Below, piece by piece: positions 3,562 to 35,630 of a DNA stretch of 64,000 bases. Each line of letters begins with the position of its first letter. Positions within the stretch are counted from its first letter, which is position 1. The notes below the pieces were generated by a model. It was not told the origin of the DNA, made no database searches, and saw nothing but the letters and a program-made list of their open reading frames with translations. Made by a program: the position numbers and the translations under genes. The stretch lies in IMG/VR virus record IMGVR_UViG_2827179085_000005, positions 1 through 64,000 of that record, one strand, 5' to 3'. This DNA comes from a virus (Duplodnaviria > Heunggongvirae > Uroviricota > Caudoviricetes).

Positions 3562-3590
3562 TTTACACATGCCATAGAAAGTACTATAAT
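3562..3590 (+). promoter_or_regulatory. sigmaA-type promoter TTTACA-17-TATAAT with conserved spacer motif
   Basis: TTTACAcatgccatagaaagtacTATAAT upstream of recJ-like gene RBS. Confidence 0.5.
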
Positions 3591-3605
3591 AATGGAGTTG
3601 ATTGA

Positions 3606-4538
3606 ATGGCAAATTGGACTAAGAGAAACAAAATCAAGGTCAAAGATGATTTGTTATTGATTGAGAAGTTGGCGATGGTTAGAGGGATCAAGAATCTCGA
3701 AGAGTGGATGAATCCTCCTTCAAGTTTTGTGAACAGTCCTTATAGTCTCTTGAATATGGATACGGCAGTCGAGATGATCCTTAAAGCTATTCACAAGCAG
3801 ATGAAAATTTGCATTGTTGCAGACATTGATACCGATGGCGTTTGCTCTACAGGGATTATGTACAATTATCTTCGCGAACTAACTCAAAACGTTGTCTACA
3901 TTCATGCACAGCGCAGTCAAGGTCATGGTCTGGAAACGGTTCTCGACAAAATTGAAGATGATGTTGACTTGGTTATCATTGTTGACTCATCATCAAACTC
4001 TGTTGAAGCTTGCAAGGAGCTTCATGATAAGGGTCTGCCAATAGTAATCATTGACCATCATGAGGTCGATAGAGAGAATCCATATGCTACAATTGTCAAC
4101 TGTCAGTTGGGCGACTATCCAAACAAACATTTGTCTGGTAGCGCGATGTGCTATAAGGTGTGTCAGGTTATTGATGAATATCTAAGCATTGAGCTAGCTG
4201 ATGACTTCCGCGATCTATCTGCAATCGGAATCGTTGCGGACATGATGGATGTTAGAAATATGGAGAATCGATATCTTATCTATAACGGAATCAATAATAT
4301 TAACAATCTTGGCATTAAAGAGATTTTAAAGCAAAGTAAAATCGACTTTAGTGAGGGGATTAATTCGACGAATATAAGTTTTAAGATTGCTCCAATCATC
4401 GGTGCATGTTCTCGTTTCGATAAAATTGAGTTAGCTCTTGAGCTGGTTACGTGCGACGACGAAGTTCGTGTGAAAGAACTGGTCAAAGAGATGATTTCAA
4501 TGAATGAAGAACGAAAGGCAAATCAAAAAATATGTTGA
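3606..4538 (+). CDS. recJ: RecJ-like ssDNA exonuclease, DHH domain part (frameshifted gene, N-terminal piece)
   Basis: DHH motifs (IVADIDTDG, IIDHHE); reading frame ends in an A6 run at 4525-4530. Confidence 0.65.
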   Translation: MANWTKRNKIKVKDDLLLIEKLAMVRGIKNLEEWMNPPSSFVNSPYSLLNMDTAVEMILKAIHKQMKICIVADIDTDGVCSTGIMYNYLRELTQNVVYIHAQRSQGHGLETVLDKIEDDVDLVIIVDSSSNSVEACKELHDKGLPIVIIDHHEVDRENPYATIVNCQLGDYPNKHLSGSAMCYKVCQVIDEYLSIELADDFRDLSAIGIVADMMDVRNMENRYLIYNGINNINNLGIKEILKQSKIDFSEGINSTNISFKIAPIIGACSRFDKIELALELVTCDDEVRVKELVKEMISMNEERKANQKIC

Positions 4539-5295
4539 AAATGCCATAGAAAGTATAGACGATTCTAACAATATCATTATCTATGTTGACAACAATATTG
4601 ACTCTGGCTTTCGTGGATTGATTGCAACTGAGTTTGTTGAACGCTTTAGCAAACCTGTTCTTGTCTTAGCGGAGTTTAAGGATGATGAAGGAAATGTTAT
4701 TGAATATAAAGGTAGTGCGAGAAGTGTTGGAGTACTTCCGTTGAAATCTATGTGCGAAAGTACAGAATTATTTAAGCTTACTCAGGGGCACGAAGGAGCA
4801 TTTGGTGTAGGATTTACTGTTGAAAACCTACAAGCGATAATTTCCTACTTCAATGACACTTTAGATAGTACAGACCTCCAGAAGAGTATCGTATATGACT
4901 TGGAATTGGAAGCTAGTGACATTGAAGAGATGGACATTAAACAGGTGGAGAAGTTTTCTAAGATTGTTGGACAGGGATTCAAAGAGCCAAAATTCTTAGT
5001 AAAAGGCTTGATTGTAGAAGAAGAGGAAACAAAGAAGCTTGGCAAGTATGTACGAGCTGTCATGGGAAGTAACAACGATACAGTTAAGATCCCATGTGAA
5101 GATGGATTTGCTCTGATGAAATTCCGCACACAGGATACCTACGCAGAGGATATTGAAGCTCACTTCTATGGTAATTTCGCAACCGAGATTGACGCAATCG
5201 GAAGTCTTAACTTAAATCGATTCTATCATGGTGGTCATAAGCGGTGGATTACAACGAAACAAGTCTTCCTCGAAGACTATCGTATCGCTGATTAA
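4504..5295 (+). CDS. recJ: RecJ-like exonuclease, DHHA1-like C-terminal piece (+1 frame continuation)
   Basis: Continues after A6 run; C-terminal FYHGGHKRW resembles DHHA1 GGGH motif; combined length ~573 aa as for RecJ-like proteins. Confidence 0.55.
   Translation: MKNERQIKKYVENAIESIDDSNNIIIYVDNNIDSGFRGLIATEFVERFSKPVLVLAEFKDDEGNVIEYKGSARSVGVLPLKSMCESTELFKLTQGHEGAFGVGFTVENLQAIISYFNDTLDSTDLQKSIVYDLELEASDIEEMDIKQVEKFSKIVGQGFKEPKFLVKGLIVEEEETKKLGKYVRAVMGSNNDTVKIPCEDGFALMKFRTQDTYAEDIEAHFYGNFATEIDAIGSLNLNRFYHGGHKRWITTKQVFLEDYRIAD
4555..4570 (+). repeat. variant copy of conserved 16-nt motif (ATGCCATAGAAAGTAT) inside recJ coding sequence
   Basis: sequence match to repeated motif. Confidence 0.4.
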
Positions 5296-5669
5296 TGCTT
5301 ATCGTTTATGCGTCTAAGACAGGGCAAGTTCAGCGTTTTGTAGATCGCCTTAATATGAAAGCTATCAAAATCGACGATACCATTGGTATCGTCGATGAGC
5401 CTTTCGTGCTGATTACTTATACAACTGGATTTGGTGAAGTTCCAGCGGAAGTATCGGAATTTCTCAGACACAACAAGAAGAATCTTGTAGCTGTCTGTGC
5501 CAGCGGGAATCGGAATTGGAAAGAGAATTTTGCAAGAGCCGCGAATAAAATTTCTTACCTGTACAATGTTCCCATCCTTCTCAAATTCGAGTTACAAGGA
5601 GACGATACAGACACAGAGAATTTCAAGGAAAGGGTGCATAAATTAAATGAAGTATATCGAGCTAAATAA
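5295..5669 (+). CDS. nrdI: NrdI flavodoxin-like protein
   Basis: LIVYASKTGQVQRF flavodoxin-like N-terminus; immediately upstream of nrdE. Confidence 0.75.
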   Translation: MLIVYASKTGQVQRFVDRLNMKAIKIDDTIGIVDEPFVLITYTTGFGEVPAEVSEFLRHNKKNLVAVCASGNRNWKENFARAANKISYLYNVPILLKFELQGDDTDTENFKERVHKLNEVYRAK

Positions 5670-7743
5670 TAAGATGGCAAACCAATTTAAGGAGAACTTT
5701 GACTTTGAAGCATTGCTTCTTGACAAGATTGCAGTCGAAGAGTTTCTTAAAGAGGTGGAAAGCAAGTCTGTAAAATTCGCATCACTGAAAGAACGCATGG
5801 AGTTCCTTATCCATAACAGCTACTACATCGATTTCTACGAAATGTATAGCTATGAGCAAATCGAAGAGATTCATGATTTCTGCTATAGCTTCAACTTCGA
5901 GTTCCAATCCTTTATGGCAGTAAGTAAATTCTATCAAGATTATGCTCTGAAAAGTGACAATGGTCTTAACTGGTTAGAGAGTTATGAAGATCGTGTAGCG
6001 ATTGTGGCTCTGTTCTTGGGTAACGGTGACTTCAAGAAGGCTAAACGAATCTGTCACGATATGATGTTGCAGAATCTACAACCAGCAACACCAACATTCA
6101 AGAATGCAGGACTTGTACGTGCAGGAGAGCTGGTTAGTTGCTTCTTGCTGTCACTCGATGATTCACTTAATTCTATCGCATACAACGCTAATTCTTCTAT
6201 GCAATTGTCTAAGATCGGTGGCGGTGTAGCTACAAACTTCACTCGCTTGCGCGGTCGTAACGAAGAAATTAAAGGCATAGATAATTGCGCTTCTGGTATT
6301 GTTCCAGTATTGAAGATTTGGGAAGATATTTTCTCATATGTTGACCAATTAGGACAACGCAAGGGTGCAGGGGCAGGGTATTATCACATCATGGGATGGG
6401 ATATTGAAGAGTTTCTTTCAACGAAGAAGATCAATGCCGATGAGAAAGCACGTCTTCAATCCCTTTCGATTGGCGTTATTGTTCCAGACGTATTCATGAA
6501 GAAGGCTTGGAAGGGCGAAGACTATTATGTATTTGCTCCGTACACAGTCTACAAGACATTCGGAATCCATCTGGACGATATGGATATGAATAAGTGGTAT
6601 GACAAGCTTGTTGCTTCTAACACAGTCAAGAAGAGAAAGATTAACGCACGTAAGATGCTGGACTTGATTGCAGAACTGCAAATGGAATCTGGATATCCTT
6701 ACATCATGTATGTTGACAATGCAAACAAGGTTCATGCTTTGAGACACATTGGCTCCATTAAGCAATCGAATCTCTGTACGGAAATCATGCAATTGCAGGA
6801 AGTGTCATATATTGACGATCCGAATGACTCCAACAGATTGAACGAATATAAGCGTGATATTTCTTGCAATCTTTCATCTGGTAATATCGTAAATATGATG
6901 AAAACAAATCGAATCAAGGAAACTTCGTATTCAGCAATGGATGGTCTAACGACTGTAGCGAAGTTGACTAATATTTCTCAGGTTCCTTCGGTTGCTCTGG
7001 CTAACGACACGATGAATAGTGTTGGATTCGGTGCAATGAACCTTCATGGATTCTTTGCGAAAAATCAGATTGACTATGAATCTGATGAAGCAAAAGACTT
7101 CGTAAACGTATTTTTCATGATGGTCAACTACTACACAATCGAGCGGTCGATGCAGATTGCACTCGAAGAAGGGAAGACATTCCAAGACTTCGAGAAGTCC
7201 GATTATGCCGATGGTTCTTACTTTAAGAGGTACATCGAGAAAGATTACCTTCCTAAATTTGAGAAGATCGCGAAACTGTTTGAAGGAATGCATATTCCTA
7301 CGAGAGAAGACTGGAAAGGTCTTATGAATGCAGTAATGAAGAATGGTATGTATCACAGCTACCGATTGGCTATTGCTCCAACTCAATCTATTTCTTATGT
7401 GCAAAATGCAACACCAAGTATTTCACCAATTGTAAATGTGATTGAGTCTCGTATGTATGGGAAATCAAATACATACTACCCAATGCCATTCCTGTCTATG
7501 GATACTTATTTCTACTATAAGTCTGCATATGAGACTGACATGTACAAGATGATTGACCTGATAGCTGTCATGCAGGAGCACGTAGACCAAGGAATTTCTA
7601 CTATCCTGTACGTAACGAGCAACACACCGTCTAACGAACTGGCAAGTATGTATGCATACGCATGGGCGAAGGGTCTAAAATCGTTGTACTACACTCGAAC
7701 CAAGACATTAAAGATTGATGAATGCGAGTCCTGCGCTGTTTAA
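5647..7743 (+). CDS. nrdE: ribonucleotide reductase class Ib alpha subunit NrdE
   Basis: Near full-length collinear similarity to Bacillus NrdE (SNLCTEI, GLGAMNLHG, C-terminal YYTRTK...CxSC); 698 aa, no intein. Confidence 0.95.
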   Translation: MKYIELNNKMANQFKENFDFEALLLDKIAVEEFLKEVESKSVKFASLKERMEFLIHNSYYIDFYEMYSYEQIEEIHDFCYSFNFEFQSFMAVSKFYQDYALKSDNGLNWLESYEDRVAIVALFLGNGDFKKAKRICHDMMLQNLQPATPTFKNAGLVRAGELVSCFLLSLDDSLNSIAYNANSSMQLSKIGGGVATNFTRLRGRNEEIKGIDNCASGIVPVLKIWEDIFSYVDQLGQRKGAGAGYYHIMGWDIEEFLSTKKINADEKARLQSLSIGVIVPDVFMKKAWKGEDYYVFAPYTVYKTFGIHLDDMDMNKWYDKLVASNTVKKRKINARKMLDLIAELQMESGYPYIMYVDNANKVHALRHIGSIKQSNLCTEIMQLQEVSYIDDPNDSNRLNEYKRDISCNLSSGNIVNMMKTNRIKETSYSAMDGLTTVAKLTNISQVPSVALANDTMNSVGFGAMNLHGFFAKNQIDYESDEAKDFVNVFFMMVNYYTIERSMQIALEEGKTFQDFEKSDYADGSYFKRYIEKDYLPKFEKIAKLFEGMHIPTREDWKGLMNAVMKNGMYHSYRLAIAPTQSISYVQNATPSISPIVNVIESRMYGKSNTYYPMPFLSMDTYFYYKSAYETDMYKMIDLIAVMQEHVDQGISTILYVTSNTPSNELASMYAYAWAKGLKSLYYTRTKTLKIDECESCAV

Positions 7744-7748: not shown

Positions 7749-7764
7749 ATGCCAAAGAAAGTAT
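7749..7764 (+). repeat. conserved 16-nt motif ATGCCAAAGAAAGTAT
   Basis: followed by 7-bp inverted repeat GAAAGTT-a-AACTTTC (7767-7781) and nrdF RBS. Confidence 0.5.
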
Positions 7765-7807
7765 AGGAAAGTTAAACTTTCTCTAATATCAATTAGGAGG
7801 TAATAGA

Positions 7808-9147: not shown

Positions 9148-10695
9148 ATGTCACACAGCTTGATGGAGCAATTTGGGGAGATCGTATACAGTAGCAATAA
9201 AGATTTGATTCAGGAGAATGCGAATACTGATGGCATGAGTCCTATGGGGATGCAATCGCTTTTTGCATCTACCAGTTCAAAGTATTTTGCGGTTGAAAAC
9301 TTATTGTCAGACGAAGCGAAAGAAGCTTATCTTGGTGGATACATACACATTCATGATCTTGATTTTTACGCAACTGGAACAACAACTTGTTGTCAAATAC
9401 CTCTAGCAAAGCTACTAAAGGGTGGATTTAATACTGGTCATGGTCATATGCGTGAGCCAAACAATATTATGAGTGCAATGGGCTTAACTTCTATCATTTT
9501 ACAAGCGAACCAGAACCAACAGCATGGTGGTCAATCAATACCAATGTTCGATTATGATCTGGCTCCATATGTGAAAAAGACATTCAACAATTTCTATTCG
9601 GAAGTCTCAGCAGAGATGCAAGAGGATGGAGTTATTGAATGGGAAGAAAAAGCAGAGGATAGAGCATGGAAGAAGACCGAAAGAGCAGTATACCAAGCAT
9701 GTGAAGCATTTATTCACAATAGTAATTCTATGCATAGTCGTGGCGGTTCCCAAACTCCATTCGTCTCCATTAACTTGGGAACAGACACTTCAATTGAAGG
9801 TCGTATGATTACAAAGAATCTTCTACTGGCTACTCAGGCTGGATTAGGAGATGGTGAAACACCTATCTTTCCTATCATTGTGTTCAAGATCAAAGAAGGA
9901 ATCAACTACAATCCTGATGACCCAAACCATGATTTATATCGTCTGTCACTAGAGACGACATCTAAGCGGCTTTTCCCGAACTATGTGTTCATCGATGCTC
10001 CATTTAATCTGAAATACTATGATGGAACACCTGAGAGCGAAATTGCAACTATGGGCTGTAGAACGAGAACAATCAGCAATGTTCATGGCAAAGAAACACC
10101 TATTGGCAGAGGAAACTTGTCGTTCACTACGATTAACCTTCCACTGTTGGCAATTGAATCAGAGGATGTATCAGACTTTTTCCGTAAGCTGGACAAGTAT
10201 GTTGATATCTCAATTAGACAGCTTTATGACCGATACCTGTATCAAGCACAAAAGACTGTTGCCAATTTCAAATTCCTTTATGGTCAAGGACTTTGGGCGA
10301 ATGGAGAAGATCTTGATATTAACGATCATCTGGCAGAAATATTGAAGCAAGGAACATTATCTGTTGGCTTTGTTGGATTGGCAGAAGCGCTTGTGGCTTT
10401 AATTGGAAAACACCATGGCGAAGATGAAACAGCATGGAGCCTTGGATTCGATATTATTAGATTCATTAGAGACAAAACTGATGTGGCTACGATGAAACAT
10501 AACATGAATTACACGACACTTGCTACACCAGCAGAATCTTTCGCTGGTAAGGCTTTGCGTCAAACGAAAAAGAAGCATGGTGAAATCAGAGGGGTAACAG
10601 ATAGAGAGTACTTCACGAATGGATTTCATGTTCCAGTTTACTATAAGATCAAAGCATTCGACAAAATAAAAAGGAAGCTCCATTCCATGAGCTGA
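9148..10695 (+). CDS. nrdD: anaerobic ribonucleoside-triphosphate reductase NrdD (N-terminal 515 aa; gene frameshifted near 3' end)
   Basis: Class III RNR-like sequence; frame ends in A-run 10663-10672 and continues in another frame. Confidence 0.8.
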   Translation: MSHSLMEQFGEIVYSSNKDLIQENANTDGMSPMGMQSLFASTSSKYFAVENLLSDEAKEAYLGGYIHIHDLDFYATGTTTCCQIPLAKLLKGGFNTGHGHMREPNNIMSAMGLTSIILQANQNQQHGGQSIPMFDYDLAPYVKKTFNNFYSEVSAEMQEDGVIEWEEKAEDRAWKKTERAVYQACEAFIHNSNSMHSRGGSQTPFVSINLGTDTSIEGRMITKNLLLATQAGLGDGETPIFPIIVFKIKEGINYNPDDPNHDLYRLSLETTSKRLFPNYVFIDAPFNLKYYDGTPESEIATMGCRTRTISNVHGKETPIGRGNLSFTTINLPLLAIESEDVSDFFRKLDKYVDISIRQLYDRYLYQAQKTVANFKFLYGQGLWANGEDLDINDHLAEILKQGTLSVGFVGLAEALVALIGKHHGEDETAWSLGFDIIRFIRDKTDVATMKHNMNYTTLATPAESFAGKALRQTKKKHGEIRGVTDREYFTNGFHVPVYYKIKAFDKIKRKLHSMS

Positions 10696-10769
10696 CCAAT
10701 GCAGGGCATATTACCTACATTGAACTTGATGGTGATGCATCGAAGAATATTGACGCTCTTGATGCAATA

Positions 10770-11003
10770 GTGCGAACCATGAAAGAAAGTGGAATTGGTT
10801 ATGGTTCTATCAACCACCCTGTAGATAGATGCTTGGAATGCAATCACAAGGGCATTATTAACAACGAGTGTCCTAAGTGTGGAAACGAAGATGAACACAG
10901 AATAGAGCGTATTCGTAGAATAACTGGATACCTTGTTGGCAGTATGGGTAAGTGGAATACTGCCAAGCAAGCAGAGGAACGAGATCGGGTGAAACACTCA
11001 TGA
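10770..11003 (+). CDS. nrdD: NrdD C-terminal segment (Zn-ribbon CxxC..CxxC and glycyl-radical RITGYL)
   Basis: Glycyl radical motif RITGYLVG and four Cys; in-frame upstream sequence (…HELTNAGHITYIELDG…) lacks a start and joins first piece after 1-nt indel. Confidence 0.7.
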   Translation: MRTMKESGIGYGSINHPVDRCLECNHKGIINNECPKCGNEDEHRIERIRRITGYLVGSMGKWNTAKQAEERDRVKHS

Positions 11004-12373: not shown

Positions 12374-12928
12374 ATGAATGCATTTTCTGATTATGATAAG
12401 TGGTCTGAGATATGTAAACAAGGAATCTTTGAAGCATGGGTTCCATGGGTTTCGGACAGACCACTTGAATTTTTTATTCCTAAACATGACAATCCAAAAG
12501 AAGGCATTCTTACCGATGTTATTTCCGACAAGACCGAAGAGTCACAGCAAAAAATTATTACTGATTTAAAGAGAAGAAAGGTTGTTGTTTTAACGTCTGA
12601 CGATCAATGTCAAGATACATATTTCTCTGATGTTTTGGTTGCAAAGATAGTTTCAATCAAAGACCATCATAGAACGCAAGATTGGTATAAAAATTATCTG
12701 CTAAATGACATACATCCATTCTATGTACATATTCCAGCTAATGGTGTGTTGAAGGAAAGTTACATAAATATTGCTCAACCGATGACGATTGGCAAGAAGA
12801 TGCTGATTAAGAATCACAATATGATTCTTCCTGCTGATCGTATGGTTCTAGTTGAAAAAAGATTTACTGAAATGATTGATTTGGGAGTAATTAAAGTAAG
12901 TGGAAATAACCAAGTTGTCAATGAATAA
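12374..12928 (+). CDS. hypothetical protein
   Basis: ORF with RBS; followed by strong terminator. Confidence 0.45.
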   Translation: MNAFSDYDKWSEICKQGIFEAWVPWVSDRPLEFFIPKHDNPKEGILTDVISDKTEESQQKIITDLKRRKVVVLTSDDQCQDTYFSDVLVAKIVSIKDHHRTQDWYKNYLLNDIHPFYVHIPANGVLKESYINIAQPMTIGKKMLIKNHNMILPADRMVLVEKRFTEMIDLGVIKVSGNNQVVNE

Positions 12929-12930
12929 AA

Positions 12931-12970
12931 TACGGTGAAGGGCAAACGCCTTTCACCGTATTTTTTGTTT
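12931..12970 (+). terminator. rho-independent terminator
   Basis: 13-bp stem TACGGTGAAGGGC/GCCTTTCACCGTA followed by TTTTTTGTTT. Confidence 0.8.
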
Positions 12971-13095: not shown

Positions 13096-13124
13096 TTGAC
13101 AGATACTAAAGAAAGTATTATTAT
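13096..13124 (+). promoter_or_regulatory. sigmaA-type promoter TTGACA-17-TATTAT with motif variant in spacer
   Basis: TTGACAgatactaaagaaagtatTATTAT. Confidence 0.5.
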
Positions 13125-13264: not shown

Positions 13265-14677
13265 TTGATGTTGGGCGTAACAGCTCTGGCGAAAAACACA
13301 ACTAAAACTAAGTCAGTTGCCAAAGAAAGTATAACACTGATAATATCGAAGTTGAAGGAACGCATAAAGAGTTCTGGATACGAAGTGTACGAGGATTATG
13401 TAACTGAACGATATATGCCGACAGATAAGCTGGTTGGAACGATGTACATGGTCGAACGTATGGATTACGGTTTTCACATCTATTATATTCATGAGCCTAG
13501 CGAAACAAATAGGATCGCTGGCAAAGATGGAATTGTAACAGAAATGTACTATGACCTTAGAAACAAGGTGTATTGGATCAAGCGGAATACAAAAGATGTT
13601 AAGTTTAGTGAAAGAAACGTTGATAGTATTTTTCCGCAAGATCGTGTGAAGCGCAAGGAAGTGTTTAAATTCCTTTCGACAAAAGGAAATACTGGATTGT
13701 ATGAGTCAGCATATCGGTATCTTGGAGCAATGGGGATGGAGCGAACAGAAATGTTCGGAAGATTCTTTCATAGGCTCATAACAGAATATAGCTACTACGA
13801 ATTACTGCATAAAGCAGGGATTCCGGTAGATGGTAACTTGTTAATCAGAAACAGTGATGGCAAATCACCAATGGAGATTCTTGGATTGTCCAAAACACAA
13901 TGGAAAATCGCAAATAAGTTCGGTGTTTCCGTTAATGAGTTACAGGGATACAGGAATAATGAAGCTGGCGACAATAGGCTGATAAACTATCTTAACTACA
14001 TTAAGTCTCTTGATCTAGAGTATGGGGTTGAGAAGATAAGAGAGTTTGTTTATAGCGAAATATCGTACATATATTCTCAACATACGTACTATAACTCAGC
14101 ACTATCAATTGCAAAGAGATACAACTTGCCTGAGAAATACTTAATTAAATACATCTACTTCGAGTGCGATGTTTCCCAAGGTCTTTCTTCTAGTACAGCC
14201 TTATCTCAATATAGCGACTATATCAGGATGGCTACTGAAATGGGGTATGAGCGGTTTGACAGATATCCTAAGTTTCTAAGAACATATCATGATATTGTTG
14301 CAAGAAACTATAAGGTAAAGCTCAATGAAGAAGAACAAAAGCAATGGGATGAGGTCTGCGAGGGTAATACGGTATTCAAATACGCTATGGATGGCTACAG
14401 GATTTTCACTCCAATGAAGACAGAAGAATTGGTTCGTGAAGGAAATGTCTTGGGTCATTGCGTAGGAAGCTATGTGGGTAAGGTGAGACAAGGAACATCA
14501 GTAATTGCATTCTTACGTGATGCCGATGATATTGAAAAGCCGCTTGTCACCATAGAAATACAAGGTAAATCTATTATTCAGGCAAAAGCGAAGATGAACA
14601 ATCCTCCTACGAGGGAACAAAAAGACTTTATCGAAAAGTTTGCTAAGAAATTCGAATTAGAAATTAAATCATATTAA
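13265..14677 (+). CDS. hypothetical protein (470 aa)
   Basis: long ORF; conserved-looking C-terminal GHCVGSYVGKVRQG segment of unknown family. Confidence 0.5.
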   Translation: MMLGVTALAKNTTKTKSVAKESITLIISKLKERIKSSGYEVYEDYVTERYMPTDKLVGTMYMVERMDYGFHIYYIHEPSETNRIAGKDGIVTEMYYDLRNKVYWIKRNTKDVKFSERNVDSIFPQDRVKRKEVFKFLSTKGNTGLYESAYRYLGAMGMERTEMFGRFFHRLITEYSYYELLHKAGIPVDGNLLIRNSDGKSPMEILGLSKTQWKIANKFGVSVNELQGYRNNEAGDNRLINYLNYIKSLDLEYGVEKIREFVYSEISYIYSQHTYYNSALSIAKRYNLPEKYLIKYIYFECDVSQGLSSSTALSQYSDYIRMATEMGYERFDRYPKFLRTYHDIVARNYKVKLNEEEQKQWDEVCEGNTVFKYAMDGYRIFTPMKTEELVREGNVLGHCVGSYVGKVRQGTSVIAFLRDADDIEKPLVTIEIQGKSIIQAKAKMNNPPTREQKDFIEKFAKKFELEIKSY

Positions 14678-15032: not shown

Positions 15033-15062
15033 TTGACCTTATGCTAAAGAAAGTACTATAAT
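15033..15062 (+). promoter_or_regulatory. sigmaA-type promoter TTGACC-18-TATAAT with conserved spacer motif
   Basis: TTGACCttatgctaaagaaagtacTATAAT upstream of nadV. Confidence 0.55.
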
Positions 15063-15077: not shown

Positions 15078-16496
15078 ATGCTAAAAGACCTTCGTAGTAA
15101 CCCAATTATGCTTACAGATGCTTATAATCTTTCTCACCAGCGGTTGAAGATCAATACCGATTGGGAAGTATCACACATGTACAATCGCTCGAAACCAATG
15201 TTATTGTTCGGACTGTTGGAAATCGCCAACAATATCTTGAAGACGCAAATCACAATCGAGATGATTGACCAAGCAGAAGCACAAGCAAACCGCATGGGAT
15301 TGATCTTCCCTCGTGAATTGTGGGTACGAGTAGTAAACGAATGTGATGGATGGATTCCAATTGAAATCCAAACGCTTCCAGAAGGAACATGGTGTCCTGT
15401 AGGAACGCCATTTGCACAGATTCGTAATACAATCAGAGGTTTTGGTGAACTTGTAACTTGGTTCGAAGGCGAATGGATGCATGGTTACTTCCCATCAACT
15501 GCCGCAACACAAGCATATCGTATGCGAAAATATCTTGAACAGAAGCAACGCCAATACGGTTATGATGACAGCTTTATGCTTCGTCTTCACAGCTTCGGAT
15601 TCCGAGGTCATCGTAGTCTTGAAGATGCGTATTGGGCAGGAATTTCGTGGAACTTGTTCTTGTATGGTACTGATGATTTCCACACAGCAGTCCATACTCC
15701 GAGTGCGAAAATTGTGAGTATCGCGGCTCTGGCACACAAGGTGACACAACAGTTCGATAACGAATATGAGGGCTACAAACATGCGATCAAGGCAACAGCA
15801 GATGCAGGAGAGAAGGTCGTTGCAATCGTAATTGATACATACGATGCACATCGTTTCCTTAATGAGTACCTGATTCCTCTCGCAAAATATGCCGCAGAAC
15901 TTGGTGTTCACATCGTAATTCGTCCAGACAGTGGAGACACATGGGAGCAAGTAGTTATTGCTTACCGATTTATATCGCGTCACTATCTGCCAATCACGAA
16001 TGTTTCGGCAATCATTGGCGAAGGAATGGATTTCGAGAATGTGAAGAAAGCAGATGCATACTTTGAGCAACATGGTGTACCGCTTAACTTTGTATCTTAC
16101 GGTGTTGGTGGAGGATTCTACAACTACTCAAACCGCGATCTGCTTGGATGGGCAATGAAAACAGCGTTCTCAAACGGAAAGAGTCGCATGAAGTTCTCAG
16201 AGAATCCTATCAAGAGAAGCATTCCAGATGTTGTAGGACTTTATCGAAACTCCTATGGTGATTTGATTGTAGGAAAAGAGGACGATGTTCCAGAATCCGC
16301 AAATCTTTACCGCACGATTTACAGCTATACAGATGGTATGGATGTTCCATTCATGATCGAGTATGGTGACAGCGAATGGAAAGAAACTCAGGAACGTGCG
16401 CTAGCGGCGAATACAGAACAAGCGAATATTTATCTCAGTGATGAGATTCGCGCTGAAATTGGAGAGTTCCAAAGACGATACAGAAATCGGGTGTAA
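15078..16496 (+). CDS. nadV: nicotinamide phosphoribosyltransferase (NadV/NAMPT)
   Basis: N-terminal IMLTDAYNLSH (cf. NAMPT ILNTDSYKVTH), ~470 aa type II PRTase-like. Confidence 0.8.
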   Translation: MLKDLRSNPIMLTDAYNLSHQRLKINTDWEVSHMYNRSKPMLLFGLLEIANNILKTQITIEMIDQAEAQANRMGLIFPRELWVRVVNECDGWIPIEIQTLPEGTWCPVGTPFAQIRNTIRGFGELVTWFEGEWMHGYFPSTAATQAYRMRKYLEQKQRQYGYDDSFMLRLHSFGFRGHRSLEDAYWAGISWNLFLYGTDDFHTAVHTPSAKIVSIAALAHKVTQQFDNEYEGYKHAIKATADAGEKVVAIVIDTYDAHRFLNEYLIPLAKYAAELGVHIVIRPDSGDTWEQVVIAYRFISRHYLPITNVSAIIGEGMDFENVKKADAYFEQHGVPLNFVSYGVGGGFYNYSNRDLLGWAMKTAFSNGKSRMKFSENPIKRSIPDVVGLYRNSYGDLIVGKEDDVPESANLYRTIYSYTDGMDVPFMIEYGDSEWKETQERALAANTEQANIYLSDEIRAEIGEFQRRYRNRV

Positions 16497-16498
16497 AA

Positions 16499-17068
16499 AT
16501 GATAAGATGCCAGAGAAAGTACGACCTTGGATTCGTTATCGGAAGGTTTCAGATGTTACACGCTGGACATGAACACCTCATTAATTCCGCGAAAGAAAAG
16601 TGCGAGAACCTACTTGTATTAGTAGGTTCCGCACAAGAAAGTGGAACGACGAGAAACCCTTTTGATATTAAGAAACGAGTTGACATGATGGACAAGTTGT
16701 TTGGAGACAAACCAAACATTCATATCGGCTTTGTCGCTGATTACACCAATGAGAACGACCATTCGCACGAATGGGGAAGATATTTGCTTCGACAAGTTGA
16801 TGGTTGGCGAAAGTTCCATGGTATAGACGCAAAGGTTGATTGCATGATCTATGGCAACGACGAGGAACGCAATGGTTGGTTTGACCCTAAAGATATTGAA
16901 GGAATCACACAGATTCAACTCGACAGGGCATACATTCCAATCAGCGCAACCCAAATGCGTGGATACATGGCGTGGAATCAAAAAGGTTTGTGGATGCAAT
17001 ATGCAAATCCAAAGCTTCATGTGTTTTATGAAGAACTAAGGCAAAAATTATTCGAGGTGAAACCATGA
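16499..17068 (+). CDS. nicotinamide/nicotinate mononucleotide adenylyltransferase (NMNAT/NadM-like)
   Basis: GFVIGRFQMLHAGHEHLI = (H/T)xGH nucleotidyltransferase motif. Confidence 0.65.
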   Translation: MIRCQRKYDLGFVIGRFQMLHAGHEHLINSAKEKCENLLVLVGSAQESGTTRNPFDIKKRVDMMDKLFGDKPNIHIGFVADYTNENDHSHEWGRYLLRQVDGWRKFHGIDAKVDCMIYGNDEERNGWFDPKDIEGITQIQLDRAYIPISATQMRGYMAWNQKGLWMQYANPKLHVFYEELRQKLFEVKP

Positions 17069-17607
17069 CAGTAAAGCATGAATCTTTATATAAGACAAAA
17101 TGGGTCGAACTGATGCAACGCACTTCGGATGAAGATGGTACATACATCTACATTCGTGAGCCATGGTTGATTAATGGCAAAGCTATCTCAGTTCTTCCAC
17201 TCCGCAGGGACGAATCAGGATATATTCAATTCCTTCTTCGTGGCGAAATGGCTGAAAAACCTGTCTTTGGAACAGTTAAAGGCGGTATGGACAAAGAAAG
17301 CGAAACACCTCGCCAATGTGCAGTTCGTGAACTGCTTGAAGAGGCTGGATACATTGCAGATGAAACTCAAATGATTCCACTAGGAAAGGTTAGAACATCG
17401 AAGCTGAATACTACTGAAATGTATTTGTTTGCTGTTGATGTGACAGACCTTCCTTACGAGGAACCAAAAGGCGATGGCACAGCAAATGAAGCAAATGCTT
17501 ACTGCCAATGGGTTTCTGAGCGTGACGCAATTGGATACGAAGACCCTGTGATTCATACATCGATGTTGCGCTTTTATAATTGGGTCAATGAAGAAGGAGA
17601 AATGTAA
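17065..17607 (+). CDS. Nudix hydrolase (ADP-ribose pyrophosphatase-like)
   Basis: Nudix box GGMDKESETPRQCAVRELLEEAGY. Confidence 0.7.
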   Translation: MTVKHESLYKTKWVELMQRTSDEDGTYIYIREPWLINGKAISVLPLRRDESGYIQFLLRGEMAEKPVFGTVKGGMDKESETPRQCAVRELLEEAGYIADETQMIPLGKVRTSKLNTTEMYLFAVDVTDLPYEEPKGDGTANEANAYCQWVSERDAIGYEDPVIHTSMLRFYNWVNEEGEM

Positions 17608-18621: not shown

Positions 18622-19428
18622 TTGCCAATCATTCTGAAAGAGCAAGCAGAGATACTTGAAGCTAGTGGTTATACTGTAGCATTTATAGGTATCTATGGCT
18701 CTCAAAACTACGGATTGGATTTACATACAGAGGAATATCAGTCTGACATTGATATGAAAGCTATTATAGTTCCAACGTTAGACAATCTGATTCGAAATAG
18801 TAAGCCTGTTTCTACTGTGGTGGATACGAAGTGGGGTCAATGTGATGTGAAGGATATTAGAGTGTTTTTCGGAACTCTACTAAAAGCAAATCCATCGTTC
18901 ATCGAAATTCTGTATACAGACTACTATTACGTAAATCCCAAATTTGAAGTGGAGTTTAATCAAATACTCTCGCTCAGAGATGAACTTATGGAAGCTTTGT
19001 CTCCACAATTCATGAAGGCAATGTATGGAATGATGTGCGAGAAGGCGAAAGCAATGTGTCATCCATATCCATCAATCGCACATAAGATTGAGAAGTATGG
19101 ATACGATGGGAAACAATTATCACATGCGTATAGGTTGCTTGTGATGATTGATGAATATTTCAACAAGAAGAAGCCATTGAAAGAATGTTTCTGTCCTAGC
19201 GGTCATACAAAGGGCATCATCATAGAATTTAAGCTTAATAAAATTCCGCTAGAAATTGCTAAAGAAAGAATCGACGTATTTTTAGAAGATGGAAAGAAGG
19301 AAAGAGATAAATATCTCTCTAGCGTTGATATTAGCAAAATCGACTTTTCTATCAAAGATCGTTTCCTGATGTTATCGCAAGAAATTATCAAAAACAAAAT
19401 CATTGAGGAAGTACAGAGAGGGCGATAA
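18622..19428 (+). CDS. nucleotidyltransferase, KNTase/ANT(4')-Lnu-like Pol-beta superfamily fold
   Basis: FIGIYGSQNYGLDLHTEEYQSDIDM matches GS...D.D NTase motif and resembles kanamycin nucleotidyltransferase N-terminus; TTG start uncertain. Confidence 0.5.
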   Translation: MPIILKEQAEILEASGYTVAFIGIYGSQNYGLDLHTEEYQSDIDMKAIIVPTLDNLIRNSKPVSTVVDTKWGQCDVKDIRVFFGTLLKANPSFIEILYTDYYYVNPKFEVEFNQILSLRDELMEALSPQFMKAMYGMMCEKAKAMCHPYPSIAHKIEKYGYDGKQLSHAYRLLVMIDEYFNKKKPLKECFCPSGHTKGIIIEFKLNKIPLEIAKERIDVFLEDGKKERDKYLSSVDISKIDFSIKDRFLMLSQEIIKNKIIEEVQRGR

Positions 19429-21445: not shown

Positions 21446-21461
21446 ATGCTAAAGAAAGTAT
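21446..21461 (+). repeat. conserved 16-nt motif ATGCTAAAGAAAGTAT directly upstream of ligase RBS
   Basis: sequence. Confidence 0.5.
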
Positions 21462-22976: not shown

Positions 22977-22992
22977 ATGCTAAAGAAAGTAT
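22977..22992 (+). repeat. conserved 16-nt motif ATGCTAAAGAAAGTAT
   Basis: sequence. Confidence 0.5.
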
Positions 22993-23058: not shown

Positions 23059-23074
23059 ATGCCAAAGAAAGTAT
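23059..23074 (+). repeat. conserved 16-nt motif ATGCCAAAGAAAGTAT upstream of dut RBS
   Basis: sequence. Confidence 0.5.
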
Positions 23075-23835: not shown

Positions 23836-23851
23836 ATGCCAAAGAAAGTAC
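23836..23851 (+). repeat. conserved 16-nt motif ATGCCAAAGAAAGTAC followed by GGGGAG-GAAA-CTCCCC hairpin (23858-23873)
   Basis: sequence. Confidence 0.5.
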
Positions 23852-25817: not shown

Positions 25818-25833
25818 ATGCCAAAGAAAGTCC
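25818..25833 (+). repeat. conserved motif ATGCCAAAGAAAGTCC; its 3' half forms a 12-bp perfect hairpin stem (25826-25858)
   Basis: GAAAGTCCACAT-n9-ATGTGGACTTTC. Confidence 0.5.
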
Positions 25834-25879
25834 ACATGCATATTGTATGTGGACTTTCGTAAATAGGAGGGTTTTTCTT

Positions 25880-26214: not shown

Positions 26215-26245
26215 AAGCAGGGGGAAATTCTCCTGCTTTTTCTTA
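26215..26245 (+). terminator. rho-independent terminator
   Basis: AGCAGGGGG-loop-TCTCCTGCT + TTTTCTT. Confidence 0.7.
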
Positions 26246-26254: not shown

Positions 26255-26283
26255 TTGACTACTGCTAAAGAAAGTACTATAAT
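26255..26283 (+). promoter_or_regulatory. sigmaA-type promoter TTGACT-17-TATAAT with conserved spacer motif
   Basis: TTGACTactgctaaagaaagtacTATAAT. Confidence 0.6.
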
Positions 26284-26322: not shown

Positions 26323-27003
26323 ATGAGCAAAGATAAAATATATCGCTATGCAAAAAGTAAGGGAGAGTATGAGAAGCAAGTAAATATTCATATTCGCGAA
26401 ATGATTGAAATGATAAAGTATGAAGAAGTGAAGAAAAATCTATACGTCAAAGGCATCAAGCTATCCACTCATGCATTTAAACGTATGAAACAACACTTCG
26501 ATTTAGTTGATGTCGCTGTAGCGACACGAAAAGCTAAAGAGATGCTTCGACATGCTGTACGCCTTGGCACAGTCCTGTCTTATGATGGGCGTATCAATGT
26601 TCTTTATGCTTACCGTCAAACGGCATTCTTCTTGTCTCCTGACTTGAAGACAGTTGTTACTGTGAACAGATTCCACGAAATAAGCTACAAGCCAGTGCTA
26701 AAAAAAGTACATGATGGTCTTGATAGAGAAGAATTACTTGAACTACATATCAGTCATCTCCGTGAAATTGAGAGAAAAGAAGAAGAACAGATGCGCTTGA
26801 TTCTCTCAATCGAACAGAAGGTGAGAGAAGCGACAGAACAATGCGCAACAATGCTCCGTCTAGTCAGAGGTGGAGGACGCAAGAAGGAAATTAAACATTT
26901 GATCTCCGAACAGAACCATCATCTAAAGATGGAAGGTAGAAAGCTTTTCGAATTGAAGGTTGAGAAGCGTCATTTGTGCAAGTCTCTTGTCTCATTATAT
27001 TGA
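26323..27003 (+). CDS. hypothetical protein (coiled-coil rich)
   Basis: ORF. Confidence 0.5.
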   Translation: MSKDKIYRYAKSKGEYEKQVNIHIREMIEMIKYEEVKKNLYVKGIKLSTHAFKRMKQHFDLVDVAVATRKAKEMLRHAVRLGTVLSYDGRINVLYAYRQTAFFLSPDLKTVVTVNRFHEISYKPVLKKVHDGLDREELLELHISHLREIERKEEEQMRLILSIEQKVREATEQCATMLRLVRGGGRKKEIKHLISEQNHHLKMEGRKLFELKVEKRHLCKSLVSLY

Positions 27004-27018
27004 TGCCAAAGAAAGTAT
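27003..27018 (+). repeat. conserved 16-nt motif ATGCCAAAGAAAGTAT upstream of RBS
   Basis: sequence. Confidence 0.5.
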
Positions 27019-28194: not shown

Positions 28195-28468
28195 GTTTCC
28201 ATTGTACACTGAGAAAGAAGTGATTAGCCTTCCTTTAAGAACAAAAATTCTTTCAGTAAAAGTGCAACGAGGACGAGCAGTTGTCTACGCTTTGATTGAC
28301 ACTAGCATCTTAGATAAGGAGGATTATGAGTTTGTTTCCATTCCAACTGGCAGAGATACAAGGGTGTATGCAGAAGGAATTGAGAACTACACCTTCCTTG
28401 ATACTGTGCTTTTTGGAGAAAATCAAACATATGTAGATCATGTATTCTACAGAAAGGTTGCGAAATAA
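28178..28468 (+). CDS. hypothetical protein
   Basis: ORF. Confidence 0.4.
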   Translation: MKTIYKFPLYTEKEVISLPLRTKILSVKVQRGRAVVYALIDTSILDKEDYEFVSIPTGRDTRVYAEGIENYTFLDTVLFGENQTYVDHVFYRKVAK

Positions 28469-28749
28469 TGAGCAAGCAAATGACAAAGAAGCAAGCTATT
28501 GATTTACTGGCGACACTTACATTCATCTCAGTTAGCAAGAATGGTGAACAGGTTATTGAGAAAATCGGTCTAACGGAAGAACAGACAGATAAGATGATGC
28601 GTGTCGTAGTAAGTCTGTTCAATAATGACGAAGTAGAAGCCAATAAGTTCATCATTAAAGAAATGAAAAAGCTTTTAAAGAAGCTCGATGAACATGATGA
28701 TTCAGATGCCAAAGAAAGTACATTTAAAAGGACTGGTGATGGAAAATGA
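28468..28749 (+). CDS. hypothetical protein
   Basis: ORF; contains motif copy 28706-28721 near its 3' end. Confidence 0.4.
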   Translation: MSKQMTKKQAIDLLATLTFISVSKNGEQVIEKIGLTEEQTDKMMRVVVSLFNNDEVEANKFIIKEMKKLLKKLDEHDDSDAKESTFKRTGDGK

Positions 28750-31975: not shown

Positions 31976-32001
31976 GGGGAGACAAAAGTCTCTCCTTTTT
32001 T
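31976..32001 (+). terminator. rho-independent terminator
   Basis: GGGGAGAC-AAAA-GTCTCTCC + TTTTTT. Confidence 0.8.
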
Positions 32002-32012: not shown

Positions 32013-32041
32013 TTGACCATTGCCAAAGAAAGTACTATAAT
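32013..32041 (+). promoter_or_regulatory. sigmaA-type promoter TTGACC-17-TATAAT with conserved spacer motif
   Basis: TTGACCattgccaaagaaagtacTATAAT. Confidence 0.6.
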
Positions 32042-33270: not shown

Positions 33271-33573
33271 ATGATGATACTGCCATCTTTAGACGATGAA
33301 GTCATCAACACGATTAAGTATGGGTTGCCAAGCAAACAAATAATAGCCTACGCAACAACATTAGTTGTACGTCACCCCAAAACTAATGACCTGATAATCT
33401 TGAAGTGGAGATTACCTTGGCATAAAACAGAAGCGTTAAAGGAAAGCGACTTCATAGAACTTAACAACGCGAGAACTTGGGATGCAGATTGGTCGGATTT
33501 AATGGGTAAGCATATCATTGTTAATCCAGTAATATTAAATCTGAATGCACGTAAGGCGTTAGCAAGTCTGTAA
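33271..33573 (+). CDS. hypothetical protein
   Basis: ORF. Confidence 0.4.
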   Translation: MMILPSLDDEVINTIKYGLPSKQIIAYATTLVVRHPKTNDLIILKWRLPWHKTEALKESDFIELNNARTWDADWSDLMGKHIIVNPVILNLNARKALASL

Positions 33574-33603
33574 TAACAAATCTTCAATTGGGAGTGATGA
33601 AAT

Positions 33604-33849
33604 ATGAGTCGTTGTTGTGGCAACTGCTTCAAGAACAATGTAGACGAAGCAAAACAGAACTTCTACTATCGCGATTGGATAGGAAACAAGTGGGATGCAA
33701 GTTGTCGTCCAGTATGTGACCAGTGCATTGAAGCAGGAGAGTACAAGGAAGAGGTTAAAGGAGAAGTAACTATCCACAGACTATATCTTGGGACTTCAAG
33801 ATTGTATATTCCCGAAAACAATCATGGTTGGGGATGGTTCGATGAATAG
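33604..33849 (+). CDS. Cys-rich small protein
   Basis: CCGNC...C..C. Confidence 0.4.
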   Translation: MSRCCGNCFKNNVDEAKQNFYYRDWIGNKWDASCRPVCDQCIEAGEYKEEVKGEVTIHRLYLGTSRLYIPENNHGWGWFDE

Positions 33850-34057
33850 TAATCATGAATTAGCTGAGTACATTGCAAGCCATTTGCCCATCAGCTTTGA
33901 GGATGCATTGGATTTTGTCGAAGGATCATTAAGCGGCGGTATGTTTACTGATAAAATCAACTTTACTATTGCACTGGGTAATAGGGACAGAGTTATCATG
34001 CAAATGAGTAATCAACTGAATGCTATTAGAAGCTTACTAGAAAAGTATAATATTTGA
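33842..34057 (+). CDS. hypothetical protein
   Basis: ORF. Confidence 0.35.
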   Translation: MNSNHELAEYIASHLPISFEDALDFVEGSLSGGMFTDKINFTIALGNRDRVIMQMSNQLNAIRSLLEKYNI

Positions 34058-34109
34058 GCTTCAAGGCTAAACAAAACAAATCTTCTATTTAGAATGGGTG
34101 GTAAAGCAA

Positions 34110-34307
34110 ATGGATACTGAAAATAACAAGATAAAGGTTCAGTGTGGCGTTGGTAGAAAGGATTCATTGACGTTTAATGATGATGACGATGGATATTATG
34201 TTGTTGACATGATTTATTGTGGTAAATTTGCGGGAACCATTATTGTCGATTACGATGAAGCAATAAAATTAAGGGATTTCTTGAATGATAATTTGGGTCA
34301 AGACTGA
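34110..34307 (+). CDS. hypothetical protein
   Basis: ORF. Confidence 0.35.
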   Translation: MDTENNKIKVQCGVGRKDSLTFNDDDDGYYVVDMIYCGKFAGTIIVDYDEAIKLRDFLNDNLGQD

Positions 34308-34432
34308 ATAAAATAAACGTTCCATTTACAGTTAGGAGACGAGAGTATGCTGGTGAATCAAGACTTCACCTTCACCCTTGATTCAAGAGTCCAACCAAAA
34401 TTCAACACAAAGATTTACAATCAAATTAAGAT

Positions 34433-34771
34433 GTGGGAACTCTATGGGGATTATATGATGCTACAAATCGAAATCATGGAGATGATTTAAGGATGTACGT
34501 TTATGATGTAGAGATTAAGTTAATAGGTAAGCGCGAAGCGTTTGTAACCGTAACTCAAAGAGAGATGGACGTAAGTAGCAATGGAAGTATGATTGAAGGA
34601 TTTCCGAAGCTTGGTGTGCAAAGAAGGGCGTATGTCACAGCTTTATTCAGAAACATTGAAACCAAAGCTGAGAAGTGTGCCGACAAGATTGTAAGAAAGT
34701 GGAGGAAAAAGAAACCACTAAGTCAATTAGTTATAGATGCTTGTAAATTTGAAGGAGGATTAACATGCTAA
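34433..34771 (+). CDS. hypothetical protein
   Basis: ORF. Confidence 0.35.
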   Translation: MGTLWGLYDATNRNHGDDLRMYVYDVEIKLIGKREAFVTVTQREMDVSSNGSMIEGFPKLGVQRRAYVTALFRNIETKAEKCADKIVRKWRKKKPLSQLVIDACKFEGGLTC

Positions 34772-35019
34772 AGAAAGTACTTTTGTCGTTTTTATCTCTT
34801 GTGGTCATTGTTGGTTGTTCTGGTGCGACAGTTAAGGGAGACGAAGAAAAAGCAACATACATTGAGTCAGTAGATGAGTATAACACATTTACTGCCTTGA
34901 AGGTTGTCGATAAAGAAACAGGATGCAAGTACTTAATCATCAACACTCCACATAACAATAGCAATTATCCAATGGGTATGCAGATGTATGGTGCAGATGG
35001 GTTGCCAGTATGCAAATGA
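34765..35019 (+). CDS. lipoprotein (signal peptide + lipobox IVGC)
   Basis: MLKKVLLSFLSLVVIVGCSG; start codon is part of conserved motif ATGCTAAAGAAAGTAC. Confidence 0.5.
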   Translation: MLKKVLLSFLSLVVIVGCSGATVKGDEEKATYIESVDEYNTFTALKVVDKETGCKYLIINTPHNNSNYPMGMQMYGADGLPVCK

Positions 35020-35369
35020 AGGAATATTTTCATTATTGCCCTGATTGTAAGGCAGAAGGTGTAAAGACAACCGAAAAGGAATTAAAGTGTAGCGTACTTG
35101 ACACAGATGGATATGGTCAACCAGTCCAATTCACTGAATGCGAATGTGGAGGTATCCTGAACGGTTTCCTCTACCTTTCATTCTACAAACGTAAAGGTGA
35201 GACACTAGACGAAGGATTCTTTAGTTATCTCAAACATCGTATTAATTTTTACTATGAAGACTTCAAAGAGCATGAGGAAGACATTCGTGCAAAGTATTAT
35301 AGAGTGCGACCTAAACCAACCAAGGAAATGATTGAACAACGATTAAAAGAATTGAGAGGGGAATGCTAA
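35010..35369 (+). CDS. hypothetical Cys-containing protein
   Basis: ORF. Confidence 0.45.
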   Translation: MQMKEYFHYCPDCKAEGVKTTEKELKCSVLDTDGYGQPVQFTECECGGILNGFLYLSFYKRKGETLDEGFFSYLKHRINFYYEDFKEHEEDIRAKYYRVRPKPTKEMIEQRLKELRGEC

Positions 35370-35630
35370 TTGACAGACACTACACAGATGCCAAAGAAAG
35401 TATGTTACGAGGAACATCTCGAATTAATTGTTGCAGGATGCCCTATTCCTGCTGATACTCAGACCATCAAATTATTCAAGGGTAAGCAACTGTTTGCTTA
35501 TCAGAAGCTGGCATTAGCCAAGCGCGATATGGAACAGTTCAAGATTTGTGTTGAAGAGATTGAGATTCGCCTTAACATATTCGATGGTCTGATGGAAAGA
35601 ACAGCACTTCATTTTGGAGGTAATGCCTAA
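35370..35630 (+). CDS. hypothetical protein (alternative start ATG 35388 lies in motif copy)
   Basis: ORF. Confidence 0.35.
   Translation: MTDTTQMPKKVCYEEHLELIVAGCPIPADTQTIKLFKGKQLFAYQKLALAKRDMEQFKICVEEIEIRLNIFDGLMERTALHFGGNA

Follow-up and report, generated by a model that had tools for sequence, protein, structure and literature searches.

In the Bacillus subtilis phage SPβ, a repeated element named SPBRE was proposed as a repressor site in 1999 (Lazarevic 1999, cited in PMC4191935) and proved to be the recognition site of MrpR (YopR), the master repressor of the phage (Kohm et al. 2023, PMC10516654). Specifically, binding and repression by MrpR are documented by ten peaks in chromatin affinity purification sequencing (ChAP-seq), by electrophoretic mobility shift assays and by an approximately five-fold repression of PaimR and PyosX fusions, with yorE/yorF among the targets, and the protein is a monomer with a tyrosine-recombinase fold that retains 3 of 7 catalytic residues (PMC10516654). 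A second system of dispersed sites is that of mycobacteriophage L5 (Cluster A), in which the orientation of the operators and stoperators of the repressor gp71 is strikingly correlated with the direction of transcription, and a reversed site loses repression (PMC9283540). Here we describe a repeated 16-nt element, ATGCYAAAGAAAGTAY, in a 64,000-nucleotide stretch of viral DNA (positions 1 to 64,000 of record IMGVR_UViG_2827179085_000005, hereafter the window), which belongs to a Sundance-like, distantly SPβ-related phage of Paenibacillus. By analogy with SPβ, the element is probably the operator of the MrpR (YopR)-family lysogeny repressor of this phage, that is, the counterpart of SPBRE.

The recurrence of the element goes well beyond chance, in agreement with a first-pass annotation of this DNA. 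It has 11 exact matches in the window against 0 in 100 shuffled sequences, and 24 matches at up to two mismatches against 0.22 expected. Moreover, when the 20 best copies are turned into a position weight matrix (PWM), 26 sites score at least 12, as opposed to 0.6 in shuffles, and the strong copies in the 64 kb number at least 21. The annotation had listed about 16 copies, all of which exist, with small slips in position (3568 for 3569, 4555 for 4541, 13106 for 13103, 15042 for 15041 and 26263 for 26262); its list lacked five plus-strand copies, 13317 and 16507 plus the weaker 1596, 19256 and 26695, and three minus-strand ones, 51523, 61016 and the weaker 50531. The last three, unlike the listed copies, which are all on the plus strand, lie where genes and GC skew turn to the minus strand and sit among minus-strand genes, so that the rule is co-orientation with genes and not a restriction to the plus strand, and all 26 PWM hits share the orientation of the local genes. 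Information content is limited to positions 1-16 plus a C three bases upstream (16-19 bp), G3, C4, G9, G13 and T14 are invariant, and no dyad symmetry was found in the element, which is strictly asymmetric. A mobile element of the miniature inverted-repeat (MITE) or repetitive extragenic palindromic (REP) kind and a polar signal of the Chi or FtsK-orienting (KOPS) type were ruled out, as inverted termini and flank conservation are absent, only 16-19 bp are kept and an exact register within promoter spacers would be unexpected. Among the matches listed, an exact 16-mer scan of IMG/VR gave single-copy chance hits only.

A consensus scan of positions 1-40 kb for promoter-like sites with at least 11 of 12 hexamer matches gave 3562-3590, 13096-13124, 15033-15062, 26255-26283 and 32013-32041. 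All five of these top sites hold the element in their spacer at a fixed register, starting 1 nt (once 2) after the −35 and ending directly 5′ of the −10; the spacer measures 18 nt at 15033-15062 and 17 nt at the other four. The first-pass annotation had recognized this register, counting six such copies instead of five. Three of the five lie directly 3′ of intrinsic terminators (12927-12964, 26215-26238 and 31976-31995 with its T-run) and therefore mark the starts of transcription units. Two strong σA promoters near 42.1 and 45.5 kb are without the element. Across the copies outside the five σA sites, neither a −10 at fixed distance nor any other second block is conserved.

About 15 copies have no recognizable promoter, that is, no σA hexamers; the annotation had put the sites without a canonical −35 at 10-25 nt upstream of a ribosome-binding site (RBS). 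Many copies lie 0-9 nt from a Shine-Dalgarno (SD) sequence, some are inside open reading frames (ORFs), and most of those outside promoters are found within operons, 12-50 nt 5′ of a start codon. Specifically, the strong non-promoter copies at 7749, 21446, 22977, 23059, 23836, 25818, 27003, 28706 and 51523 precede a start codon by 12-49 nt; about ten copies occupy intergenic gaps of 32-130 nt, many of them 0-9 nt 5′ of an SD, and those at 4541, 13317, 16507, 34765, 35388 and 61016 lie inside ORFs or on first codons. The copies of the window are as follows.

1596 to 1611, plus strand: weak copy ATGCTGAAAAAAGTAT, PWM score 13, between helicase and primase genes.
3569 to 3584, plus strand: ATGCCATAGAAAGTAC, filling the spacer of TTTACA(3562)-17-TATAAT(3590); RecJ-like gene downstream.
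4541 to 4556, plus strand: within the RecJ-like ORF; aligned codon and phase equal to those of Sundance copy 100615.
7749 to 7764, plus strand: in the 64-nt gap between NrdE and NrdF genes, start codon 43 nt on; the 3′ half can pair with a downstream ACTTTCT.
13103 to 13118, plus strand: ATACTAAAGAAAGTAT, spacer of TTGACA(13096)-17-TATTAT(13124), after terminator 12927-12964 and before a PcfJ-like gene.
13317 to 13332, plus strand: about 50 nt into the 5′ end of the PcfJ-like ORF.
15041 to 15056, plus strand: spacer of TTGACC(15033)-18-TATAAT(15062); nicotinate phosphoribosyltransferase (NAPRTase) gene downstream.
16507 to 16522, plus strand: 5′ end of a nucleotidyltransferase ORF (like nicotinamide mononucleotide adenylyltransferase, NMNAT); an alternative gene call begins downstream of the copy.
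19256 to 19271, plus strand: weak copy TTGCTAAAGAAAGAAT inside an ORF, PWM score 17.
21446 to 21461, plus strand: in a 36-nt gap, 1 nt 5′ of an SD and 13 nt 5′ of the DNA ligase start codon.
22977 to 22992, plus strand: first of two copies in the gap before the dUTPase gene; the orthologous place in Sundance also has two (87970, 87889).
23059 to 23074, plus strand: second copy before the dUTPase gene, start codon 20 nt on.
23836 to 23851, plus strand: directly 3′ of the dUTPase gene, followed by a GGGGAG/CTCCCC hairpin; orthologous to Sundance 86565.
25818 to 25833, plus strand: copy ending in AAAGTCC, its 3′ half being the 5′ arm of a 12-15-bp hairpin; small ORF 46 nt on.
26262 to 26277, plus strand: spacer of TTGACT(26255)-17-TATAAT(26283), just 3′ of terminator 26215-26238; orthologous to the σA-embedded Sundance copy 82247.
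26695 to 26710, plus strand: weak copy GTGCTAAAAAAAGTAC within ORF 26323-27003, at codon 124, as in Sundance copy 81803.
27003 to 27018, plus strand: in a 32-nt gap, next start codon 17 nt on; orthologous to Sundance 81489.
28706 to 28721, plus strand: overlaps the 3′ end of ORF 28468-28749, 24 nt 5′ of the ORF starting at 28746.
32020 to 32035, plus strand: spacer of TTGACC(32013)-17-TATAAT(32041), just 3′ of terminator stem 31976-31995 and its T-run.
34765 to 34780, plus strand: exact copy that falls on the start codon and the next few codons (MLKKV…) of a lipoprotein-like ORF.
35388 to 35403, plus strand: exact copy, 18 nt into ORF 35370-35630.
50516 to 50531, minus strand: weak copy ATGGCAGAGAAAGTAC on the start codon of ORF 50310-50531, PWM score 18; may be a chance match.
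51508 to 51523, minus strand: AAGCCAAAGAAAGTAT, 18 nt before the endolysin-like gene 50545-51489.
61001 to 61016, minus strand: exact copy within tail-region ORF 60886-62052, next gene 130 nt on.

Given these positions, the element might be imagined to act at the RNA level, as a site in the 5′ leaders of many early mRNAs that is read by a translational repressor (similar to RegA of T4) or by a processing nuclease. Copies on the sense strand only, the closeness of many of them to an SD (0-9 nt) or their overlap with start codons, and the ability of some to form hairpins with downstream sequence would all suit such a site. However, each of the five best-placed copies is followed by the predicted start of the promoter that it occupies and stands in exact DNA register with the −35 and −10 of that promoter, and copies that abut or precede a −35 in Brevibacillus phage Sundance and in the relatives L015 and L016 are likewise upstream of the predicted start. 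Moreover, the distance to the start codon ranges from 12 to more than 100 nt, and intergenic gaps as short as these are enough to explain why copies are close to an SD. Stable hairpins with their 5′ arm in the 3′ end of the element accompany only about 9 of 47 copies, so that the hairpin is not integral to the element; this proportion, together with 0 matches of Rfam covariance models to the whole window at gathering thresholds, rules out an integral hairpin or RNA structure. Taken as a whole, we consider an RNA-level site very unlikely. As for the hairpins themselves, at a minority of copies they are very stable (z −3.7 to −7.2) and begin within the AAAGTAC 3′ end, namely at 7749-7790 and 25818-25860 of the window, at 4034-4095 and 5214-5260 of L015 and at 114527 and 115708 of Sundance. 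They could be 5′ mRNA stabilizers, attenuators or terminators.

At the nucleotide level, megablast found nothing matching the window in phage and plasmid collections. By tblastn, the Pol III α subunit of the window is 74% identical to that of Sundance, and most window proteins have Sundance orthologs in conserved order. Among the annotated Sundance proteins are homologs of YonK, YonG and YomH and a tape measure resembling that of SPβ, and SPβ yorJ/K/L/M, nrdI/E/F and yosR are matched by window proteins at 24-51% identity; furthermore, relatives carry the YorF and YorH Pfam families and the gene order YopQ-like/MrpR/helix-turn-helix (HTH). A 140,989-bp contig of assembly GCA_026797385.1 is 99.98% identical to the window and differs only in the lengths of poly-A runs; the host given in a sister assembly is Paenibacillus alvei. 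Compared with near-identical public contigs, the poly-A runs of the window are shorter at 4531, 10672, 18614 and 20711, and these differences split a RecJ-like gene (3606-5295), NrdD (9148-11003) and other ORFs. The splits are probably homopolymer sequencing errors and not real pseudogenes.

The motif search in relatives that the first-pass annotation had proposed found variants of the element in Sundance, L015-L018, L134 and L136/L137. The Sundance variant, AAGCCAAATAAAGTAY, has about 32 copies under a relaxed consensus and is the most frequent 12-mer family in an unbiased count. Five of its copies sit in promoters of the form −35/1 nt/element/−10 (8545, 10960, 76198, 82247 and 93141); of the others, two adjoin a −35 and many an SD. 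The genome paper of Sundance applied MEME and reported no such motif for this phage (PMC4909266). For about eight of the window copies, Sundance has a counterpart at the orthologous position, where the intergenic DNA is unalignable, and the two in-ORF copies at 4541 and 26695 fall on exactly aligned codons, in the same phase, in both phages. In the module of the 61016 copy, Sundance has two sites, 46610 and 46647, located one gene further on. In the closer relatives (L015, L016 and the Paenibacillus agilis contig L134) the G variant of the window is found; the more distant relatives L017 (TGCYAAATAAAGTAC), L018 (ATACTAAATAAAGTAT) and L136/L137 (AACYAAATAAAGTAC) have a T variant with differing 5′ ends, which again precedes YorF and Sak4 homologs. 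The lineages differ by G or T at position 9 and by ATGC or AAGC at the 5′ end. In L015 and L016, copies are also located 9-10 nt 5′ of the −35 of σA promoters before YorF.

These variants co-vary with the clades of a repressor family encoded nearby. In the element-bearing relatives, an MrpR/YopR homolog lies just upstream of the element-rich early region, and the copies begin at the switch region next to mrpR and run through the early operon into the window. The neighbourhood of GmrSD_N/YopQ-like, MrpR, divergent HTH, YorF and Sak4 genes is kept from SPβ to these phages. The homologs were found in L015 (P0023), L016 (P0009), L134 and Sundance (gp157), outside the limits of the window. Specifically, gp157 is a full-length homolog of YopR (28% identity over 327 aa, E=1e-26), and its database relatives all have PF22822 and PF22823 and are named 'phage lytic cycle repressor MrpR family'. 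P0023 comes from a phage that is nearly identical to the window. Its full-length relative P0009 (82% identity) matches PDB 8A0A/8BJV, the solved structures of MrpR/YopR, from end to end (E≈1e-19). In the most distant MrpR loci (L135 and L138-L140, at 42-57% identity), de novo word searches gave no cognate element and turned up unrelated tandem or tRNA-like repeats only. Among these are tandem repeats of about 150-184 bp in Paenibacillus MrpR-family loci, at 14439-15010 of L140, 14480-18950 of L138 and 18428-18720 of L139, with four units in L140 and units of the form CTTTGATCACGA…TTCGGCATCGAAT in L138 and L139; these may be iterons or tRNA-like arrays.

In L016 and Sundance, almost all small genes of the arm beyond mrpR are preceded by another promoter-like repeat, which is unrelated to the element and absent from the window. 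In L016 it reads GYGTGTGATT-N12-TGTATAAY, with 10 copies at 543-6772; in Sundance (L003) it reads GCGTGTGATTTT-N9-TTTACATTAATATATG, with about 17 copies at 121.5-134 kb and in the terminal repeats. This suggests a separate temporal class of transcription. The second abundant word of Sundance, CATATATTAATGTAAA, was also considered and set aside as a different element, confined to the small-gene arm beyond mrpR.

For comparison, SPBRE was derived here from the SPβ sequence upstream of the ten ChAP-seq target genes as …(T)AGACAAATACAAAWAATATGTATA(TAAT), always co-oriented with the gene. It is found in the spacer of a −35/−10 pair (yorE, yorZ, yosX and yonP), six nt 5′ of a TTGACT −35 (aimR) or abutting an SD (yopM, yopV and yonX), and the window element occupies the same three contexts: promoter spacer, at the −35 and at the RBS. 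Both are asymmetric A-rich repeats with many copies, all co-oriented with genes, in the genome of a large temperate phage of SPβ type, and in both lineages an MrpR-family gene lies in the same syntenic block. Their targets overlap as well, including the yorE/YorF early operon and the gene for a late-transcription factor. In particular, the spacer-embedded Sundance copy at 10960 precedes gp013, the annotated sigma factor heading the late genes, a placement that parallels SPBRE before yonP-yonO in SPβ. In contrast, the consensus is ATGCYAAAGAAAGTAY here and …ACAAATACAAAWAATATGTATA in SPβ, the repressors are only about 28% identical, and the density is higher here (the 64 kb contain at least 21 strong copies and Sundance about 32, as opposed to 10-11 in the 134 kb of SPβ). 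Moreover, several copies here lie inside ORFs at conserved codons, the hosts are Paenibacillus and Brevibacillus, and the late genes are probably transcribed by means of a sigma factor and not by YonO; binding is demonstrated in SPβ and proposed here. A comparison of PWMs against a column-shuffle null found no significant similarity between SPBRE and the element (p=0.12 for the window, 0.71 for Sundance), the best alignment reflecting the shared promoter register only. Consequently, the kinship with an SPβ-family repeat that the first-pass annotation had suspected holds for architecture and cognate protein family and not for sequence.

The copies lacking σA hexamers bring up a second explanation, that is, a positive promoter element read by a phage-encoded protein (sigma factor, activator or RNA polymerase), with early or middle transcripts beginning a few nt downstream and the σA-embedded copies being dual promoters. 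In its favour are the strictly sense orientation of copies just 5′ of an RBS (12-50 nt before start codons), the approximately 15 copies without hexamers, the stable hairpin that begins exactly at the 3′ end of some copies, as for a 5′-terminal mRNA stabilizer, and the annotated sigma factor of Sundance; in addition, another Brevibacillus phage cluster has a promoter-like repeat before its replication genes (PMC4909266). The missing second block at fixed distance argues otherwise, and no polymerase or sigma gene was seen in the window among the larger or relevant ORFs that were scanned against family libraries. The σA promoter in front of the Sundance sigma gene itself contains the element, and the late genes that follow this gene are without it. 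Moreover, the equivalent RBS-abutting SPBRE copies (yopM, yopV and yonX) are MrpR ChAP-seq peaks (PMC10516654), and an exact position inside consensus σA spacers is the classic placement of a repressor site. We therefore regard a positive promoter element as unlikely.

The strict asymmetry of the element bears on a further alternative, in which the operator belongs to a different phage regulator: the XRE-type HTH protein divergent from mrpR, or the product of the small ORF at 42200. Indeed, the divergent HTH genes are as syntenically conserved as mrpR (L015, L016 and L017; yopS in SPβ), and the link between element and MrpR is not a physical one in any of the computations reported here. Yet XRE/Cro-type HTH and ribbon-helix-helix (RHH) repressors normally bind palindromes or pseudopalindromes as dimers, and binding of MrpR to the positionally identical SPβ repeat is established both in vivo and in vitro (PMC10516654). 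The product at 42200, which the first-pass annotation had put forward as an RHH regulator, is an unlikely binder because its ORF follows a perfect element-free promoter with repeats of its own and has no family match; the divergent HTH protein is a possible one. Overall, a binder other than MrpR seems improbable to us. At 42108-42391, the perfect TTGACA-17-TATAAT promoter is followed by TAGTAACTAT-type direct repeats (about 42140-42170) and by the 63-aa ORF, for which family libraries gave no match and which may encode a separate small regulator with its own operator.

An MrpR-family operator thus remains the preferred reading, and the role of master-repressor site inside promoters, already suggested in the first-pass annotation, is favoured by the relatedness to SPβ, the MrpR-family gene beside the early region and the shared contexts. 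Under this reading, the repressor, a catalytically degenerate protein of tyrosine-recombinase fold encoded about 10-15 kb upstream of the window, would bind each asymmetric 16-19-bp site as a monomer; the monomeric state of MrpR (PMC10516654) fits an asymmetric single site. Bound at spacer-embedded or −35-abutting sites, it would occlude the σA holoenzyme and prevent initiation of the early units, as their position and the SPβ experiments suggest. The non-promoter copies, in short gaps and on first codons, would serve as additional sites, most plausibly as polar roadblocks that halt transcription reading through from upstream, for which the oriented intergenic sites of L5 are a documented precedent (PMC9283540). 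All sites combined would silence a replication and nucleotide-metabolism region of about 45-60 kb in the lysogen.

A more tentative possibility, which we hold to be doubtful, is that MrpR-family repressors operate an operator-plus-stoperator silencing like that of L5, with initiation blocked in spacers and elongation blocked in an orientation-dependent manner at dozens of sites. Both systems would have a monomeric repressor, an asymmetric site and more than 20 sites spread over the genome, in promoters and short intergenic gaps and oriented with transcription (here all 26 PWM hits). In contrast, the L5 repressor has two HTH-type domains and the candidate binder here a tyrosine-recombinase fold with core-binding and catalytic domains (CB+CAT; PF22822/PF22823). 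Sites are 13 bp in L5 and 16-19 bp here, the host phylum differs, and the elongation block is demonstrated in L5 and conjectural here. The candidate binder lacks the HTH plus stoperator domain architecture of the gp71 family, so that the likeness to L5 is one of function and not of membership. Another dispersed system is that of phage P1, whose monomeric repressor C1 recognizes an asymmetric 17-bp operator at many sites over the ~90-kb plasmid prophage, many of them overlapping promoters. It shares with the present case dispersed asymmetric sites for one monomeric repressor, many at promoters, and differs in protein family and host; P1 operators are not known for strict co-orientation within operons.

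Several points weigh against the assignment to MrpR. For this phage it rests on analogy, and the repressor gene is seen in the near-identical L015 (a partial sequence) and in relatives only, not in the window. The co-variation of element and MrpR clade is confounded by the overall phylogeny of the phages, the conserved divergent XRE-type HTH gene beside mrpR could encode the binder instead, and the lack of significant sequence similarity to SPBRE counts here as well. The copies without a recognizable promoter are numerous (about 15), and for the σA-embedded copies at 3569 and 15041 transcription is predicted to start within the SD or immediately 3′ of it, an odd arrangement if the promoter serves the adjacent gene. 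Finally, roadblock activity is unreported for MrpR in the MrpR literature, and the MrpR paper does not discuss orientation or elongation (PMC10516654).

Other features of the window concern the genes around the element. A NAD-salvage cluster (NAPRTase, a CTP_transf_like/NMNAT-type nucleotidyltransferase and Nudix) at 15078-17607 is preceded by a σA promoter that contains the element, and it may counteract host defences that deplete NAD. At 45725-47430, a receptor of 433 aa with HTH and tetratricopeptide repeat (TPR) domains (RRNPP/AimR-like) is located upstream of a Spo0E-like phosphatase gene (47269-47430); the pair is syntenic with Sundance gp120-gp122, has no copy of the 16-mer nearby and looks like a quorum-sensing and sporulation-interference module. 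A bidirectional terminator at 48429-48465 and a GC-skew reversal at about 44-49 kb mark the place where the plus-strand early arm meets the minus-strand lysis/tail arm.

The element is undescribed for this phage clade, and the kind of system, SPBRE/MrpR-type operator arrays, is already known. The assignment would extend the MrpR/SPBRE paradigm, so far limited to B. subtilis SPβ, to a distant Paenibacillus/Brevibacillus clade of temperate phages of about 135-141 kb with bee-associated hosts. It gives a map of the regulon, with operon starts and more than 20 candidate operator sites, and the lineage variants offer a natural experiment on DNA recognition by a repressor of recombinase fold and on the divergence of immunity specificities. 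The gene-by-gene placement and the strict orientation raise the question of whether such repressors also stop elongating polymerase. If so, this would represent a convergent reinvention, on an unrelated fold, of the strategy of Cluster A mycobacteriophages, applying to SPβ too, and the conserved in-ORF copies and the 3′-end hairpins would belong to a gene-by-gene control.

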